Of a stretch of 52,757 nucleotides of DNA, positions 1 to 52,745 are shown piece by piece (positions within the stretch are counted from its first letter, which is position 1; each line of letters starts with the position of its first letter). The stretch comes from Escherichia phage vB_EcoM_SD350. Location of the stretch: sequence record OR911937.1, one strand, 5' to 3'. The translations under genes were made by a program, and so were the position numbers. Below the pieces are notes generated by a model. That model saw only the letters and a program-made list of their open reading frames with translations. It was not told the DNA's origin and did not search any database.

Positions 1-121
1 ACTTAGAGGCGTCTATATGTATGATCCGGTTTATCTCTTTATTAATATCAGAACCGGATGAAAAAAATTTACGCTGGCGGAAAAAATAAAAAAACCGGAT
101 TGATAAATAAATCTGTAGACG

Positions 122-150
122 TTTACACTATAAAAAAGATGTGTTACAAT
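122..150 (+). promoter_or_regulatory. sigma70-like promoter candidate
   Basis: TTTACA (122-127), 17-nt spacer, TACAAT (145-150), ~55 nt upstream of the ATG at 205. Confidence 0.35.
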
Positions 151-204
151 ATTTATCAATGTTGCTGGTTACCAAATCTTTGAATTATACGCGAGGCTGA
201 ATAA

Positions 205-636
205 ATGGTTAATATAAGACAGAAAGGACAGAACTTTGAGCGCAAAATGGCTAAGAAGTTCAATAGCTCGTTCGGATTAACTGTTGAGCGCAATCTTCAA
301 CAGTCTATTAATGGCGGGGATGACTTGCTGGGTGTACCATTTTTCAGTGTTGAACTGAAGAAGCACAATACCAAGTCTATCGGAACATGGTGGAGACAGT
401 GTGCGGCGTCGGCAAAGGCTCAGAACAAGATGCCAGTGCTTATATACGAACTACCAAGAAAACAGCCTACCGTGGTGATGAATAAGGCTGATGTGATTGA
501 CTGTTTTCCAAGTGGCACGACTTTTAACGAGGCATCGAATCGCCTCTTTGTGGGTCTAGTAGAATTAACATGGGAACAATTTTGCCGGGTCTACAACTAT
601 TACGTTGCGCCCGGCACTCAATATCACGTCAATTAA
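205..636 (+). CDS. hypothetical protein, possible PD-(D/E)xK-type nuclease
   Basis: 143-aa ORF; segment GGDDLLGVPFFSVELKK resembles a D...E-x-K nuclease core; motif-level only. Confidence 0.4.
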   Translation: MVNIRQKGQNFERKMAKKFNSSFGLTVERNLQQSINGGDDLLGVPFFSVELKKHNTKSIGTWWRQCAASAKAQNKMPVLIYELPRKQPTVVMNKADVIDCFPSGTTFNEASNRLFVGLVELTWEQFCRVYNYYVAPGTQYHVN

Positions 637-818
637 TCTTGTTTCAGCTCGTCGCAAATGACACGCTGATTTTTGGCAGGGATAATACCAAGATTTAGCA
701 GGGTGTATGGACTATCAGCGACACATTGTTCAACGGTAGTCCATTCAGGTTTGGATTCAACAATTTCGTAACTACAATCATGAGTAGCCACACATGTTGC
801 CAGGATTAAGCCAATCAC
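633..818 (-). CDS. hypothetical small protein
   Basis: 61-aa ORF at the tail of the leftward early block; short, weak support. Confidence 0.25.
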   Translation of the reverse strand: MIGLILATCVATHDCSYEIVESKPEWTTVEQCVADSPYTLLNLGIIPAKNQRVICDELKQD

Positions 819-993
819 AAGTAATCACCTTCAACCAGGAACTCAAACAGCTGGTTGTAAACGTTGCAACCTTTAGCGAAAGAGCTTTCAGCAGGTTTAC
901 CATCGCGGACGATCATCATATACTCACCGCCATGGATGTCCACCCAATATTGCATGCCACCTTTGACCGGATTACGTTGTAAGAATTTAAACA

Positions 994-1239
994 TTATTTG
1001 CTCCTTATTCCAAGTTTATTCAATAACCAAATTGTCATGTCAACCCAGGTTAACGGTACAGTTTTCGGGGGTTGATAATCCCAGCAGCTTGCAGTTCTTT
1101 GTATTTCTGCTTGGCGCCGCTCCGCTTCGCGTAATACCGCATCGTCAGAAGTGCCGGCAGAAAAAAGATCGGTAATACCAGATAAATCGCGTTGATTAAC
1201 ACGTCGAGCAATGTCATATAAATCATCCTTAGAAAACAT
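994..1239 (-). CDS. hypothetical early protein
   Basis: 81-aa ORF, co-oriented with the leftward early block. Confidence 0.35.
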   Translation of the reverse strand: MFSKDDLYDIARRVNQRDLSGITDLFSAGTSDDAVLREAERRQAEIQRTASCWDYQPPKTVPLTWVDMTIWLLNKLGIRSK

Positions 1240-1446
1240 AAGCCAATACCATAAGAATTATCATAAAGACCCCAACCAGCTTCCTCATCGCCCGACCTTC
1301 AGCATATGCAGGATTCACAACAGAATACTCAACAACATGTTTACAGCGGACCATAAGGGCCTCCACTTGTGGGTTAATTCAATCATGAGGACTTTTATCA
1401 AATCCTCATTGTTGAATCAATCACCAGCGTCAGGACTTTGTTGATA

Positions 1447-1650
1447 TTACTCAATCATTACCTGAACTACTATTATACACTCTTTATTGAAGCGAGTAAA
1501 CACTTTTCCACCATTAGTGCGTTTAGCCCCAGATTTTAGAGCTGACTGGCACCAGATATGCCACTCCTCAACTGTCAAGAATTTTTGCTCAGCTTTTGGT
1601 GGCAATCCATGGGCAAGGTCTACCGTAGTAAATTTGACTAGTGGCATCAC
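1447..1650 (-). CDS. hypothetical early protein
   Basis: 67-aa ORF; its start overlaps the stop of the upstream gene by 4 nt (coupling). Confidence 0.35.
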   Translation of the reverse strand: MMPLVKFTTVDLAHGLPPKAEQKFLTVEEWHIWCQSALKSGAKRTNGGKVFTRFNKECIIVVQVMIE

Positions 1651-2069
1651 TTGACCTCAAATTTTGACTCGTCGTATTCCGGATCAGTCACGTCCCGGGT
1701 TACACAATTTTTGATTGCTTCCCAGTATTTTTGGGCGTCATCACCATCGACGTAAACCGTCCAGTGGCCGTAACTACCTTCAAATCTGTCCCAGGCTTGT
1801 TCCCAGACTTTACCATCTTCCAGCTTGTACCAAGTTGGACGACTGTCAAACTCACGAATTGGATGGTACCCCATCAAGGGATTCATCAGGTCGATAATGT
1901 CTTCCCGACTAATCTCTTGGTTCTCCCACAACACCGTCATGAATTGCTCAAACTTGAAGGCGTTTGGCAGAACTTTGAGTACTTTACCGTCACAATATAC
2001 GGTATAGATACCATCTTCGCATTTTGCACTGTACATGTTTCTCTCTCCTGTTGATATAATTTCAATCAT
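1647..2069 (-). CDS. hypothetical early protein
   Basis: 140-aa ORF, compact co-oriented packing. Confidence 0.45.
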   Translation of the reverse strand: MIEIISTGERNMYSAKCEDGIYTVYCDGKVLKVLPNAFKFEQFMTVLWENQEISREDIIDLMNPLMGYHPIREFDSRPTWYKLEDGKVWEQAWDRFEGSYGHWTVYVDGDDAQKYWEAIKNCVTRDVTDPEYDESKFEVK

Positions 2070-2104
2070 GAACTATCACAACTTTGGATAGTTCATTGTT
2101 GAAA

Positions 2105-2293
2105 CTATACTAACTTTGTTGCGATCTGAATTGTCAGCCGGAAATCTTCCATCAAGTTATCAAACTCTTTGGAACCACCAACAGCATCAGATATTTGATC
2201 TTTCACAATTTGGGCATTTGATTCCAGTAATTCAATCAGGTGCGCCAATTCGTCTTCAGTCAATTTCAGATCTTTCATAATGCATCCACCCAA
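2105..2293 (-). CDS. hypothetical small protein
   Basis: 62-aa ORF; overlaps the neighbouring ORF by 19 nt. Confidence 0.3.
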   Translation of the reverse strand: MGGCIMKDLKLTEDELAHLIELLESNAQIVKDQISDAVGGSKEFDNLMEDFRLTIQIATKLV

Positions 2294-2532
2294 GCCATAA
2301 CTTTTGCCAGTCTTACAACGTCTTCATGGTCCCGCTCGCCATCAGAAAATTCGCTGGCGATGATACCCATAATTGACGCCAGATTCATGTTGATGATGTA
2401 TGCGTGTTGGCGCACTTCATCAATTCCTGAATCTATCACCAGTTCCGCAAATTCTTGTGAACCTTCATCCCATTCAGCCCAATACTGCTCAGCATAAAAG
2501 TCCAGTTCTTTTTTCATCTCAATGTCAGTCAT
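2275..2532 (-). CDS. hypothetical early protein (acidic)
   Basis: 85-aa ORF in the leftward early array. Confidence 0.4.
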   Translation of the reverse strand: MTDIEMKKELDFYAEQYWAEWDEGSQEFAELVIDSGIDEVRQHAYIINMNLASIMGIIASEFSDGERDHEDVVRLAKVMAWVDAL

Positions 2533-2537
2533 TTTGA

Positions 2538-2738
2538 TTACTCCTCAGAACCTGAAAATTTGTCGTCAATGGCTTCAACAATATAATCAAGAGTTGAAGT
2601 GTGAGAACTATCAGAAAAAGTGCCCATCTTCTCTAACTCAATCATCATATCACGCAAGGCCATCGCCTGGTCTTTGGTCAGTTTGATTTTAAGCATGTTT
2701 CTCTCCTGTTGATTGTGAATAATTTCAATTGATGGCAC
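2538..2738 (-). CDS. hypothetical small protein
   Basis: 66-aa ORF, 6-nt spacing to the next gene. Confidence 0.35.
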   Translation of the reverse strand: MPSIEIIHNQQERNMLKIKLTKDQAMALRDMMIELEKMGTFSDSSHTSTLDYIVEAIDDKFSGSEE

Positions 2739-2760
2739 TACTTGAGTGCCATCTCAAAAA

Positions 2761-3330
2761 TTACTCTTCAGTTTCTTGTGCTTCAGTTTCAGGTTTTACT
2801 TCAGTATCAGGTTTTTTGCCAGTTACTGATTTGCCATCAGTCACTTTACCAGATTTTACATCGTTCCGGTAGTATGACATATATGACTGGATAACACGTT
2901 TTGCCTTAATATCATCCGCTTCCATTCCGCAAGCTTTCATCGCATCAGCGAGCGCCAATTTGGAATCTTCCTTATCCATCAGGTTGTAATCTTTGAACAC
3001 CAGATAGCAGGTATCTTTGGTTGATGGACCAGATGACGATTTGCGAGAGCCACCAGCGGATGCTCGTGTTGTCGCAATTTTGACTTCTTCAACTTCCAGT
3101 TGGTTCAGCTCGTCAAACAAAGCCTTCACCAGCACTTCTTTGGAGTCTTTGACGCTTACAGTACTTTCATCATTAAGCGACTTAATCATCTTAATGATCT
3201 GGTTGTTGGCAAAGTACTGAAGACTATCCATCTGCACTACAATAGTGCCAAGACTTTCAGTAGTCAGACCAGATTTCACAGACTCGACAGAAAAAGCGGA
3301 AGTCAGGTAAACGTAGTTGATAGTTGTCAT
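2761..3330 (-). CDS. hypothetical early protein
   Basis: 189-aa ORF; GAGGA Shine-Dalgarno ~8 nt upstream of the ATG on the minus strand. Confidence 0.5.
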   Translation of the reverse strand: MTTINYVYLTSAFSVESVKSGLTTESLGTIVVQMDSLQYFANNQIIKMIKSLNDESTVSVKDSKEVLVKALFDELNQLEVEEVKIATTRASAGGSRKSSSGPSTKDTCYLVFKDYNLMDKEDSKLALADAMKACGMEADDIKAKRVIQSYMSYYRNDVKSGKVTDGKSVTGKKPDTEVKPETEAQETEE

Positions 3331-3426
3331 TTGATGTATCCTCGTTGATAGAATTTTTGATATGTGTCAATCCTTGACAAGTAAGTCCAATCATGACAAC
3401 TTTTATCAAGTTGTCATTGTTGGAAA

Positions 3427-3729
3427 TTACTTCGCGCTTGCGTTTTCAACGGCTTGTACAACTTTCAGCAAATGCCTGAAGTCATCATGATAAATTTCAT
3501 TAAAGCCATCTGCCGCAAAATTTTCGCCAATTAAGATCAGTCTTTCGCGGACCAAGTCAATCAATAGTTTATTGTCAGTTATTTCCGCACCTGTAACAAG
3601 TTCAACAAATAATTGCTGTACGTTATCACAACGGATGTTACTTTCAATACACACTTGGCGCATGTCTTCAACTATTGACATGATTGTGACTTGCATTTCT
3701 ACGTCAGAAGTGATATTATTTAGTTTCAT
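3427..3729 (-). CDS. hypothetical early protein (first gene of the leftward early operon)
   Basis: 100-aa ORF adjacent to the divergent control region. Confidence 0.45.
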   Translation of the reverse strand: MKLNNITSDVEMQVTIMSIVEDMRQVCIESNIRCDNVQQLFVELVTGAEITDNKLLIDLVRERLILIGENFAADGFNEIYHDDFRHLLKVVQAVENASAK

Positions 3730-4112
3730 AATAGTTACCTTTGTATTAGTTTCCAGGCGTGACTACTGATACCAATAGTCACTGGTTGAAACTATTACTA
3801 GTGTTACTATCAACAAGAAACATGTCACCAGATTGTTAAAGAGCAAAAGGTACCATTGACATCTACCAGATGTACCTGTTGACTGGTTAAGTACTACCTA
3901 CCTAATCTAAACCATACCAATATCCTTTAGACCAGTTAGACTGGTCAATCAGTCATCACATTCAATAAATATATAATAGACCAATCGCTATTGATTGTAC
4001 ATAAAAGAATTGCAAGTTTATGCAAGTTTTTAGAAATGATAATCACTTGCGATTGAGAGTGGTTCTCGTATGCAATTGATATAGTTTCACATGTAATTAT
4101 TCAACTCAAAAT

Positions 4113-4167
4113 GGTCGGCAGGGGTTATAATAACATAGGGGTGCCACTTAAAGGAGCCGGCGAAATT
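4113..4167. repeat. copy A of an imperfect ~55-bp direct repeat
   Basis: GGTCGGCAGGGGTTATAATAACATAGGGGTGCCACTTAAAGGAGCCGGCGAAATT; shares blocks GGC.GGGG / AGGGGTGC.AC / AGGAGCC.GC.AAATT with copy B. Confidence 0.5.
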
Positions 4168-4288
4168 ATTTCTAAAAATATAATTTCAATCTGAATTATA
4201 GACGCTTTGTACTATAACGGCCGAAGTAGTTCACACGGTAATTGTACCAATCATAATAGTTACCAGAGTAATCATTTCAATTGAAATA

Positions 4289-4343
4289 GGTGCGGCGGGG
4301 GGTAATTTCGCAGGGGTGCTACCTGCCAGGAGCCAGCAAAATT
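4289..4343. repeat. copy B of an imperfect ~55-bp direct repeat
   Basis: GGTGCGGCGGGGGGTAATTTCGCAGGGGTGCTACCTGCCAGGAGCCAGCAAAATT; both copies preceded by an ATTTCAAT..GAA motif. Confidence 0.5.
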
Positions 4344-4564
4344 TTTTATTTTTTCTCTATTTTCTCCTTATCAGGACCAATCATCATCAGATTGATACGA
4401 CAGGAGCTAACCTTTTGCTTAACACAATAATAAGTGAAGCCCCTCTAAAATTTTTTTATATTTTTCGGAAATTGTGTAGACACTCACTAAAAAGTGGTGT
4501 ACTTTCTCTCCTCCACGCGCTATCATTAATGTGAATCATCAAACGGCCTCACGGTCTCCTACTT

Positions 4565-5062
4565 GTGGGTAACATTATGAAAATTGTTCAATTAGAGCCA
4601 TATCCGCCTCAATTGGCTATTGTTTGTAGTGAAAAAGAGCACGAAGAGCTCCAAAAACTGATGGATTTGCCTGATTTTGGCAACTGGAATGACCGAGAAA
4701 CGCGTACTGCATCTACCTATACGTTCACTCGCGTTAACTACCCGTATCTGTTAATCGTCGTCGAGCTGTACCACCCGGACGACCTGAAGTACAACACCAT
4801 TTCCCACGAAGGCATTCACGTAATGTCAACGCTGATGAACTATGTTGGCCTTAAATACGACCCGGAAAACGATGAATGGTACGCATATCAGCATGATTTC
4901 ATCGTAAATGCCATTTGTAAGGCCCATGACGAGTACATTGAGCGCCAAAAAACGCCAAAAACTAAGCCAAAAATCGAAACAGGTAATCATCCTGCTATAC
5001 TGCCACAAGACGTAATGAACTCGCTTTTGACTGACACTACTGGGGACTTTTTAGGTGATTAA
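4565..5062 (+). CDS. hypothetical protein with HExxH motif (possible small zinc metallopeptidase-like)
   Basis: 165-aa ORF with HEGIH; start may be GTG at 4565 or ATG at 4577. Confidence 0.45.
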   Translation: MGNIMKIVQLEPYPPQLAIVCSEKEHEELQKLMDLPDFGNWNDRETRTASTYTFTRVNYPYLLIVVELYHPDDLKYNTISHEGIHVMSTLMNYVGLKYDPENDEWYAYQHDFIVNAICKAHDEYIERQKTPKTKPKIETGNHPAILPQDVMNSLLTDTTGDFLGD

Positions 5063-7388: not shown

Positions 7389-7679
7389 ATGGCAAAACCG
7401 AAAAAAACCCGTGAGGCAACAGAAGAGCTGTTGGCCACGATGCGACGTATCCAACTGGACCCGTTGGAAGTTATGCAACGGGCTATCATACTTGCTGAAC
7501 GTGAAGACGACTACAAAGCGATGATGGATGGTGCACTGGGCGTTATGCCGTACATGTATCCTAAACTGAAAGAATCCGTTGTCAAAGCAGACATCGACCA
7601 GAACCTGTCTGGTAATGGTGTCAACCTGAACATTACAATAGGCGACCAGAAAGTGGTAGATACTACTGGGGAAGAGTAA
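7389..7679 (+). CDS. terminase small subunit candidate
   Basis: 96-aa ORF immediately upstream of the large terminase, GAGGA ribosome-binding site; positional call. Confidence 0.45.
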   Translation: MAKPKKTREATEELLATMRRIQLDPLEVMQRAIILAEREDDYKAMMDGALGVMPYMYPKLKESVVKADIDQNLSGNGVNLNITIGDQKVVDTTGEE

Positions 7680-7682
7680 TAA

Positions 7683-9131
7683 ATGAATCTTGACTTTCAC
7701 CTGCATGACAGACAAGGTGCCGCTCTGCAGTCTCAGGCAACTGAGATTCTGTACGGTGGCGCCGCTGGTGGTGGTAAGTCTCACCTTATGCGTGTAATGT
7801 CAATTATCATGTGCTGCATGATACCTGACTTGCAGATTTACCTTTTCCGCCGAAACTATAACGACCTTACGGCTAACCACATGGTTGGTCCCACAAGTTA
7901 TCCTGCCTTGCTGGACGGTATGTGCAAAGCTGGCAAGTGCAAGATTAACTACTCGAGCAACACGATTAAATTCTGGAACGGTGCGAACATCAAGCTCTGC
8001 CACCTCCAGTACGAAAAAGATATTTATACATACCAGGGTGCGGAGATTCACGTTCTGCTGATGGATGAGCTTACTCACTTCACAGAAACGATGTACCGCT
8101 TCTTGCGTAACCGTGTCCGACTCGGTGCTCTCAAAGTCCCTGAGAACTTTTTCCGGCCACTGCCACTCATCTTTTGTGGGTCAAACCCCGGTGGTGTTGG
8201 TCACAACTGGGTTAAGCGCACTTTCGTAACTGCTGCTCCTCCGATGAAAATCGTTAAGCAGGAAAAACGCGAAGGCGGTATGGCGCGTCAGTACATTCCG
8301 GCTAAGATGACTGATAACCCTACGCTGATGGAAAACGACCCTGACTACGGTGACCGTCTTGAAGGTCTTGGTGACCCGGCTCTTGTTGCTGCGATGAAAG
8401 AGGGTGACTGGGATATTGTTGCAGGTGGTGCGCTTGACGACGTATGGTCAACCAAGTGTATTCTGCCGCGTATGCGTATTCCGAAAGGCTGGACTATCGA
8501 ACGTTCTCTTGACTGGGGTTCTACTCACCCGTTCTCTGTTGGTATCTGGGCTATTGCAAATGGTGCCTCGCTTACAGACGACGAAGGCAATGAGTACTTT
8601 ATTCCGCGTGGTTCAATTATACGTATAGCTGAATGGTATGGGTGCTCTGAAAAAGAAGCTAACAGGGGTATTAAATTATCTGCTGCCGAAGTCGCTCAAG
8701 GTATTATTCGTCTACAGGAAAATTTGCAGGCTGGTGGCTGGATTCAAAGCAACGTTAATCCTGGTCCGGCAGATAGTCAGATTTATGCGTGCAAGGAAAA
8801 AGACGTCGAGACTATCGCGAAGAAAATGGAAGACGAAGGCGTAACCTGGGTCAAGGCCGACAAGTCGCAAGGTTCGAGAATAAATGGCTTAGAGCTATTC
8901 CGTCAGCTTCTGAAAAATGTTAAGATGGACGAAACGGAAAAGCCGGGCATTTATTTCATGGAAAACTGTCCAGCAGCCATAAACACGTTGCCGGTTCTGC
9001 CGCGTGACAAGAACAACACGGAAGATGTCGACACGAACTCTGAGGACCACGTATACGATGATTGTCGTTACATGGTGTTGCGTGGCATCAACCGTTATAC
9101 TACCAAGCTCAAAATAAATATGGGACGGTAA
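7683..9131 (+). CDS. terminase large subunit
   Basis: 482 aa; Walker A GGAAGGGKSH near the N-terminus and acidic nuclease-like C-terminal half; followed by portal. Confidence 0.7.
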   Translation: MNLDFHLHDRQGAALQSQATEILYGGAAGGGKSHLMRVMSIIMCCMIPDLQIYLFRRNYNDLTANHMVGPTSYPALLDGMCKAGKCKINYSSNTIKFWNGANIKLCHLQYEKDIYTYQGAEIHVLLMDELTHFTETMYRFLRNRVRLGALKVPENFFRPLPLIFCGSNPGGVGHNWVKRTFVTAAPPMKIVKQEKREGGMARQYIPAKMTDNPTLMENDPDYGDRLEGLGDPALVAAMKEGDWDIVAGGALDDVWSTKCILPRMRIPKGWTIERSLDWGSTHPFSVGIWAIANGASLTDDEGNEYFIPRGSIIRIAEWYGCSEKEANRGIKLSAAEVAQGIIRLQENLQAGGWIQSNVNPGPADSQIYACKEKDVETIAKKMEDEGVTWVKADKSQGSRINGLELFRQLLKNVKMDETEKPGIYFMENCPAAINTLPVLPRDKNNTEDVDTNSEDHVYDDCRYMVLRGINRYTTKLKINMGR

Positions 9132-52629: not shown

Positions 52630-52745
52630 TCGATAAATAAAAATAAAGGGGGTAATAAAGGGGATACAAGTACCGGATAAAGGGGGGTATATATTTATTT
52701 TATTATTATTATTATTATTATATATTATTAATTATATTAGAAGTA
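52630..52745. repeat. AT-rich right-end region with ATAAAGGGG iterons and (ATT)n microsatellite
   Basis: ATAAAGGGG(G) at 52643, 52655, 52677 (12- and 22-nt spacing); TTATTATTATTATTATTATT at ~52701-52720; CCGGAT at 52673 echoes CCGGAT at 54-59 and 99-104. Confidence 0.5.

Follow-up and report, generated by a model that had tools for sequence, protein, structure and literature searches.

At the concatemer junctions of phages T7 and T3, terminase cut sites lie at both edges of the terminal repeat, with a binding site nearby; the repeats are 160-230 bp long, and in T7 the processing is coupled to the RNA polymerase of the phage. The cos region of phage lambda (cosQ-cosN-cosB) combines a cut site of partial dyad symmetry with accessory recognition and termination sites, all within ~200 bp. 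To our knowledge, the choice and duplication of ends in phages with long, exact terminal repeats are poorly understood outside T7. Phages of the Bacillus cereus group with direct terminal repeats (DTRs) show the same short sequence, inverted, at their two termini (5'-AGGTTTT... and ...AAAAACCT-3'), which has been read as the recognition or cleavage site of the terminase (PMC5418689). In phage T5, the non-coding stretch over the inner boundary of the terminal repeat holds two 66-bp direct repeats, and an array of DnaA boxes is the feature that has been proposed to define the T5 signal (bioRxiv 10.1101/866236). Long DTRs have already been published for the phage group considered here, namely for fHy-Eco03 in 2021 and for AEV23 in 2026, and DTR ends with a specific sequence are nothing new as such; what we did not find described is the boundary motif of this group, its presence at both edges of the repeat, and a conserved internal duplicate at a fixed spacing.

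The DNA analysed here (the window) is the 52,757-nucleotide record OR911937.1 of Escherichia phage vB_EcoM_SD350, which is a complete genome of the BP63-like genus Rosemountvirus (myoviruses, 52-53 kb) with a single copy of the terminal repeat. A sequence-only reading of the window had pointed to an imperfect direct repeat, with two copies of ~55 bp lying ~175 bp apart. Both copies, A and B below, are where that reading had placed them, and the blocks that they share are real; the repeat unit, however, is longer than was thought, at ~92 nt (4080-4171 and 4255-4347), with a start-to-start distance of 176 bp, and begins with ATAGTT in both copies. The locus lies in ~850 bp of untranslated DNA, flanked by an ORF that runs leftward (3427-3729) and one that runs rightward from 4577. 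It had been described as a divergent early control region, a designation that does not hold for a separate unit: the region is the untranslated right end of the DTR. The features of the locus and of the opposite end of the repeat are as follows.

4080..4171, plus strand: copy A, full unit, as defined by local alignment with copy B; orthologues in four clades.
4117..4131, plus strand: G-box of copy A, GGCAGGGGTTATAAT; GGGG(G)T is kept in every copy of every clade.
4137..4147, plus strand: central block of copy A, AGGGGTGCCAC; a GGTG/GTG block stands here in nearly all copies.
4152..4167, plus strand: GC island and A/T tract of copy A, AGGAGCC|GGCGAAATT; the position equivalent to the cut is 4158|4159.
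4255..4347, plus strand: copy B, full unit, by local alignment; orthologues in four clades.
4293..4308, plus strand: G-box of copy B, CGGCGGGGGGTAATTT, by clade comparison.
4312..4322, plus strand: central block of copy B, AGGGGTGCTAC, a shared block.
4328..4343, plus strand: GC island of copy B, AGGAGCC|AGCAAAATT, with the right DTR boundary at 4334|4335, from the ends of Sz, fHy-Eco03 and AEV23.
4342..4355, plus strand: T6AT6C tract just outside the DTR, conserved in all clades.
76..4334, no strand assigned: inferred DTR of 4259 bp, from the homologous boundaries of Sz, fHy-Eco03 and AEV23.
71..80, plus strand: left DTR boundary, GC island ACGCT|GGCGG with the cut at 75|76, from the Sz junction, clade conservation and the position weight matrix (PWM) described below.

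In each copy, a G-run stands ahead of two shared blocks, AGGGGTGCYAC (at 4137 and 4312) and AGGAGCCRGCRAAATT (at 4152 and 4328). Local alignment of 4060-4200 with 4236-4380 gives a score of 44, which was reached by none of 2000 dinucleotide shuffles (16.9±2.5, maximum 32). The pattern GGGG-N6-18-GGGG-N10-30-GCYRGC occurs at only two loci in 52.7 kb, namely copies A and B, as compared to 0.06 expected; this composite pattern was derived from these very data, and the alignment against shuffles is the unbiased test. The motif ATTTCAAT..GAA, which had been said to precede each copy, does so at copy B (4274) but not at copy A, where its occurrence at 4183 lies 3' of the copy; what precedes copy A is a diverged homologue, ATTATTCAACTCAAAAT. 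Another motif, GTAATAGTTAC, was considered as an iteron and rejected, being enriched genome-wide and weakly clustered here (4 of its 38 matches fall in the region). The ORF 4316-4534, which overlaps copy B and had been suspected of being spurious, indeed lacks conservation: its frame is broken in other clades, leaving at most 36-46 codons in KE25, SOI901 and the fHy clade, and is truncated in Sz.

The 901 bases round the repeats match ~60 phage records, with the Escherichia phage vB_EcoM_swi3 as the best match (97.6%). Beyond Rosemountvirus, the locus is ~78% identical in Loughboroughvirus (S144, ZCSE2, SE4 and Klebsiella phage AEV23), ~74% in the clade of KE25 and Erwinia phage SOI901, and ~68% in the clade of fHy-Eco03 and SE1_KM. 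Both copies are found in all four clades, in keeping with the earlier view of a genuine duplicated non-coding element made of conserved blocks and variable spacers, and the order of the blocks is invariant: GAAA, G-box GGGG(G)T, GGTG block, GC island, A/T tract. The core of copy A, GCCGGC, is palindromic, and CGGCG(A/C)AATT(A/T)TT is nearly invariant between clades. Measured between corresponding points, copies A and B stand 175-177 bp apart in 10 genomes, while the spacer DNA is just 64-72% identical between clades and other distances vary (3699-4263 bp for the DTR, 242-267 bp from copy B to the next gene). The constancy of this ~176-bp spacing speaks for a constraint of a geometric kind. When IMG/VR was searched with the 14-mer GCCGGCGAAATTAT, most matches were due to chance, the module being found only in SE13 and ZCSE2, both of which were already known. 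One of the records, PP583539.1, is named 'Listeria phage 220426122051' and is ~95% identical to the Rosemountvirus region, so that its host label is probably wrong.

The surroundings of the repeats have conserved sequences of their own. The best conserved stretch of the whole intergenic region is 3985-4090, with 0.9-0.95 majority identity over the four clades, above that of copies A and B; it holds a tandem pair TGCAAGTTT/TGCAAGTWT, followed by GATAATCAC and TTGCGATTGA, and is probably a core early promoter with its operator. A (T)GTAGAC box is conserved at 113-121 (left end +38), at 4196-4205 (copy A +40) and at 4474-4482, the last of these preceding the rightward operon within a segment that is 100% conserved (TAGACA-17-TACTTT, 4476-4504); the three boxes are probably the -35 elements of as many rightward early promoters. 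To the right of the DTR, the nearest gene (4577-5062) is called 'putative Ku protein' in the S144 annotation; it has no Pfam match, and its sole PHROG is of unknown function. No tRNA or tmRNA genes were found.

One suggestion of the sequence-only reading was that the blocks are a structured element, such as a small RNA or a leader. On this view, the repeats would be the genes of two paralogous small RNAs, or else a structured leader, and the conserved non-coding blocks of ~55-90 nt, the T-rich run 3' of copy B, and an outer stem GUCGGC/GCCGGC that copy A of the window can form are all compatible with this. However, a search of Rfam at E up to 10 yielded no family (noise only, with snoRNA and miRNA models far below gathering scores), and a comparison of RNA folds, which had been put forward as a check, gave z between -0.5 and +0.3 against shuffles for both copies on both strands. 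RNAalifold predicted 0 pairs on 17 aligned copies; for copy B, it gave no consensus structure on either strand, with a 3-pair stem of -1.4 kcal/mol at most. The only stem of copy A is the one just mentioned, which is invariant in two clades but loses pairs in those of KE25 and fHy, with no compensating change. With no family, no folding beyond that of shuffles, no consensus structure and no compensatory changes in its favour, an RNA function seems very improbable indeed. Two further structural candidates were dropped: a central CAC..GTG dyad (a hairpin or dimer site), which 11 of 20 copies have and both copies of the window lack, and a G-quadruplex, judged by eye, since four G-runs are not conserved and copy B of Loughboroughvirus has two. 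Pairing among the conserved G-runs and the GC island is impossible, which speaks for a protein that recognizes double-stranded DNA. Of the three possibilities that had been offered (small RNA, leader, regulator-binding module), the last thus comes closest, in that a protein-recognized DNA signal appears to be right in spirit.

The nature of this signal is suggested by the termini of related phages, in which copy B holds the right physical end of the chromosome wherever termini have been determined. Salmonella phage vB_SalM_Sz (95% identity to the window) is represented by a record of 57,020 bp that includes both repeats, and its ends share 4263 bp. The record starts with GGCGAAAAAAAT..., reads ...TTTACGCT at the internal junction ahead of the repeat, and ends with ...CCAGGAGCC; after its last bases, ...GGGGTGCTACCTGCCAGGAGCC, the internal copy goes on with AGCGGAATTTTTTT. 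Since the 60 nt left of the Sz end are identical in the window, the right boundary falls at 4334|4335 (GGAGCC|AGC). For fHy-Eco03, the termini were determined with PhageTerm and confirmed by restriction digestion, giving a DTR of 3699 bp (PMC8145870). The last base of the annotated 'left terminal repeat 1..3699' of this phage lies within its copy B (...TTAAGCCCC|GGCAAATTTTTT), and the end of the repeat reads ...AAGCCCC|GGCAAA. For Klebsiella phage AEV23, PhageTerm yielded a DTR of 3,915 bp (PMC12918118); in the record, the stretch from |GGCGGAAAATTT to the end of copy B, ...TTTTAAGCGCC|, is exactly 3915 bp, as compared to 3740 bp when counted to copy A, and the copy-B end reads ...AAGCGCC|. 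In S144, restriction mapping placed a physical end in the same intergenic gap and excluded cohesive ends, the digests showing no cos behaviour upon heating and cooling (PMC7432712). The record of LPSEYT was opened 7 nt to the right of the copy-B boundary. Thus, three independent determinations in three clades converge on the same nucleotide, which places the right DTR edge within copy B, a coincidence with the physical end of relatives that the sequence-only reading had missed. Copy A matches no reported terminus in any relative, though its palindromic core is the best and its sequence the most conserved of the sites. In the AEV23 record (OR810919, 53,900-55,637), an E. coli-like IS5 transposase and a methyltransferase gene are fused directly onto the left physical end, apparently a chimeric assembly at the terminus.

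The left ends of Sz, fHy-Eco03 and AEV23 all begin with GGCG... and are preceded internally by ...ACGCT, ...TTGCC and ...ACGCC, respectively. The left end accordingly maps to ACGCT|GGCGG in the window (75|76), which sets the DTR of the window at 76-4334 (4259 bp) and means that the window starts 75 nt further left; both boundaries of the window, 75|76 and 4334|4335, are presumed from those of the relatives. The left GC island lies between A7T3 (61-70) and A6TA7 (81-94), and the site is kept as (C)GCC|GGCG in all clades; in several of them, the cut lies at the centre of a perfect palindrome, CGCC|GGCG. Hence, the left end, copy A and copy B each present a GC island of 10-12 bp with partial dyad symmetry, approximately (C)GCC|GGCG, set between A/T tracts. 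The core GCYRGCRRAAW occurs four times in 52.7 kb, as compared to 0.84 expected; the left end, copy A and copy B account for three of these occurrences. When a PWM was trained on the copy A and copy B cut sites of relatives, copy A proved the top-scoring site of the genome, and the left boundary ranked 6th of ~105,000 positions in inverted orientation with the same cut register, while scoring poorly in direct orientation. In addition, an exact inverted match of 14 nt flanks the two boundaries (TTTTTTATTTTTTC at 4342-4355 and GAAAAAATAAAAAA at 80-93; score 28, reached by 7 of 1000 shuffles). Apart from the A/T tract, copies A and B show no significant overall alignment with the left junction, and the G-box and GGTG blocks are absent immediately upstream of the left boundary; since neither the upstream blocks nor a significant alignment is shared, the idea that both ends carry one and the same signal depends on a short core. 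There is, then, moderate evidence that the two edges of the DTR may represent inverted versions of one signal.

Several other sequences round the left end deserve mention. G-rich boxes, AAAGGGGGTAATAAAGGGGATAC...GGGGGGTATAT at 52645-52695, precede the left boundary by ~150 bp and look like the copy-B G-box; they are kept in Rosemountvirus, S144 and AEV23, partly kept in KE25 and fHy-Eco03, and absent from ZCSE2, SOI901 and SE1_KM. A third full copy of the module at the left boundary was considered and rejected: G-boxes, GGGGGTAAT, do occur ~150 bp left of the cut, but they are lost in ZCSE2, SOI901 and SE1_KM, and the alignment with copies A and B is not significant. On its rightward side, the left end also resembles copy A (TAGACG..ACTATAA, +40), though not significantly, the score being reached by 142 of 2000 shuffles. 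Between the G-boxes and the left boundary, 52697-52735 is a microsatellite-like AT tract, (ATT)n / (TA)n, which varies in length among relatives and carries the annotation repeat_region in the records of brunost and birk. Four of the eight ACCGGAT heptamers of the genome lie within ~190 bp round the left boundary (52672-52678, 24-30 on the minus strand, 53-59 and 94-100), two of them forming an 8-bp inverted repeat, ATCCGGTT/AACCGGAT, and (G/T)CGGAT boxes flank the left cut in other clades too; the clustered heptamers are candidates for a left-end-specific recognition element. Two other good PWM matches inside the DTR, on the minus strand at 586 (GACCC|GGCAAAATT) and 2355 (TCGCC|AGCGAATTTT), are possibly due to chance.

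The reading that we favour, and hold to be reasonably probable, is that the repeats are tandem copies of a cis-acting DNA module that forms the chromosome end by combining terminase cleavage with recognition. The phage would package a linear genome with a DTR of ~4.26 kb (76-4334 of the window). The terminase, together with a recognition subunit, would recognize the upstream blocks, that is, GAAA, the G-box GGGGGTA and the GGTG block, and would then cut or nick the GC island of copy B upon finishing or processing of a concatemer junction. The inverted core at the left boundary would fit a symmetric processing of the edges, for example by staggered nicks as in T7 and subsequent copying of the repeat. 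That the left site points the other way would also explain why it is left uncut by the translocating complex, which would meet it 4.3 kb before copy B. Copy A, with less certainty, is probably a second binding site that assembles or positions the cutting complex, or else might serve as a backup or minor cut site; its role as a partner is suggested by its nearly invariant core and its fixed distance of 175-177 bp from copy B. A more specific version, possible if rather doubtful, is a bipartite, length-calibrated termination signal in which copy A is bound and not cut and copy B is cut, so that copy A would act as a brake or an assembly platform ~176 bp (~17 helical turns) ahead of copy B. If true, this would be a logic of packaging termination that is undescribed for DTR phages and would explain how the terminase ignores the left site. 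A related possibility is that both copies are cut, yielding two populations of genomes whose repeats differ by 176 bp.

As to the proteins involved, the gene of the large terminase subunit is found at 7683-9131, with a distant match to the T4-type N-domain. The search for a small terminase subunit identified none, which counts against the terminase reading. The 96-aa ORF upstream of the large-subunit gene (7389-7679), whose homologue was proposed as the small terminase by the authors of S144 too, from its position, has no Pfam family, a PHROG of unknown function and no relative in the PDB, and its AlphaFold model (pLDDT 66) has no fold match. The first gene inside the DTR, beside the left boundary (205-636), encodes a PDDEXK_15 / RusA-like nuclease (Pfam E = 5e-18), the homologue of which in fHy-Eco03 has been reported to be virion-associated; a nuclease gene in this position, adjacent to the end of the chromosome, could have a bearing on how the ends are processed.

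Alternatively, the repeats could be promoters, operators or terminator-like elements of a divergent early region, their position at the DTR edge being coincidental: a regulator, of the phage or of the host, would bind the G-box and GGTG blocks, or a -10-like TATAAT/TAATTT would fire rightward transcripts. TATAAT is indeed present in copy A (4126-4131) and in copy B of Loughboroughvirus, TTGAAA-16-TAATTT can be read at copy B (4281-4308), predicted promoters are annotated over both G-boxes in the S144 record, and the surrounding intergenic region is plainly regulatory, highly conserved and endowed with promoter-like sites. However, a sigma-70 scan finds no match at either block, in line with the earlier remark that the blocks do not look like plain promoters, and the total of sites in the region equals the shuffle expectation. 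Nor is the -10-like hexamer of the G-box kept, being TAAACG or TAATTG in other clades, and there is no usable -35 upstream of copy A. The conserved T6AT6 tract after copy B might suggest a terminator, but a scan for rho-independent terminators found none at either copy; copy B does not qualify as an intrinsic terminator, since no hairpin abuts the tract and 7-8 nt (AGCAAAA) separate it from any stem, and copy A is without a T tract. Above all, control of transcription would leave unexplained why three independently mapped termini fall on the same nucleotide of copy B. We therefore regard this possibility as unlikely.

If the repeats are indeed the end-forming module of these phages, the boundary sequences, the internal duplicate and its fixed spacing are now defined to the nucleotide in ~60 sequenced phages of Salmonella, E. 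coli, Klebsiella and Erwinia hosts, which are under development for biocontrol. This provides a concrete substrate for terminase biochemistry. Many records of 52-53 kb, circular or arbitrarily opened, can be re-annotated with their true ends, corresponding to ~57 kb of virion DNA, and correct ends are needed for phage engineering and rebooting. In addition, a false lead to a small RNA and a spurious ORF are removed.

Among the known systems, T5 offers both a parallel and a rival explanation. As in the phages considered here, T5 has a long DTR with small early genes and a non-coding stretch of direct repeats over the inner boundary. By this analogy, the repeats would belong to a cis region located at the inner end of the terminal repeat and serving DNA entry or replication rather than packaging, for instance as an injection-stop signal, as an end-protection signal or in fold-back priming that duplicates the repeat. 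The general layout speaks for it: the DTR makes up ~8% of the genome, small early genes fill it, and at its end an untranslated region rich in repeats straddles the boundary; also, the S144 homologue of the nuclease at 205-636 is annotated as similar to T5 protein D14. In contrast to the T5 region, which has DnaA boxes, there are none (TTWTNCACA) in 3730-4577, their genome-wide count being that expected by chance, and there is no sequence similarity to T5. The foldable CAC..GTG dyad is absent from the copies of the window, although 11 of 20 copies have it, and we know of no two-step DNA entry in these myoviruses, which further detracts from a T5-like function. On balance, such a function appears quite improbable.

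For the end-forming module that we favour, the relevant comparisons are with sites of DNA packaging. With lambda cos, it shares a partly dyad-symmetric cut site with flanking sites; unlike lambda, which has 12-nt overhangs, the ends here are repeat boundaries, and cohesive ends have been excluded for the relative S144 (PMC7432712). The phages of the Bacillus cereus group resemble the present ones in the inverted likeness of their ends, in that both 5' ends here start with GGC and the boundaries match best when inverted; they differ in sequence and lineage, and no internal duplicate of the site has been described for them (PMC5418689). With T7 and T3, the present phages have in common exact, sequence-specific DTR ends, putative cut sites at both edges, repeated elements by the edge, and a repeat that would be duplicated or processed symmetrically. 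They differ from T7 and T3 in that the repeat is 4.26 kb long, the sequences are not similar, the genome encodes no phage RNA polymerase, and the large terminase subunit is a distant match to the T4-type N-domain; moreover, the module that adjoins the edge is here a near-copy of the cut site itself.
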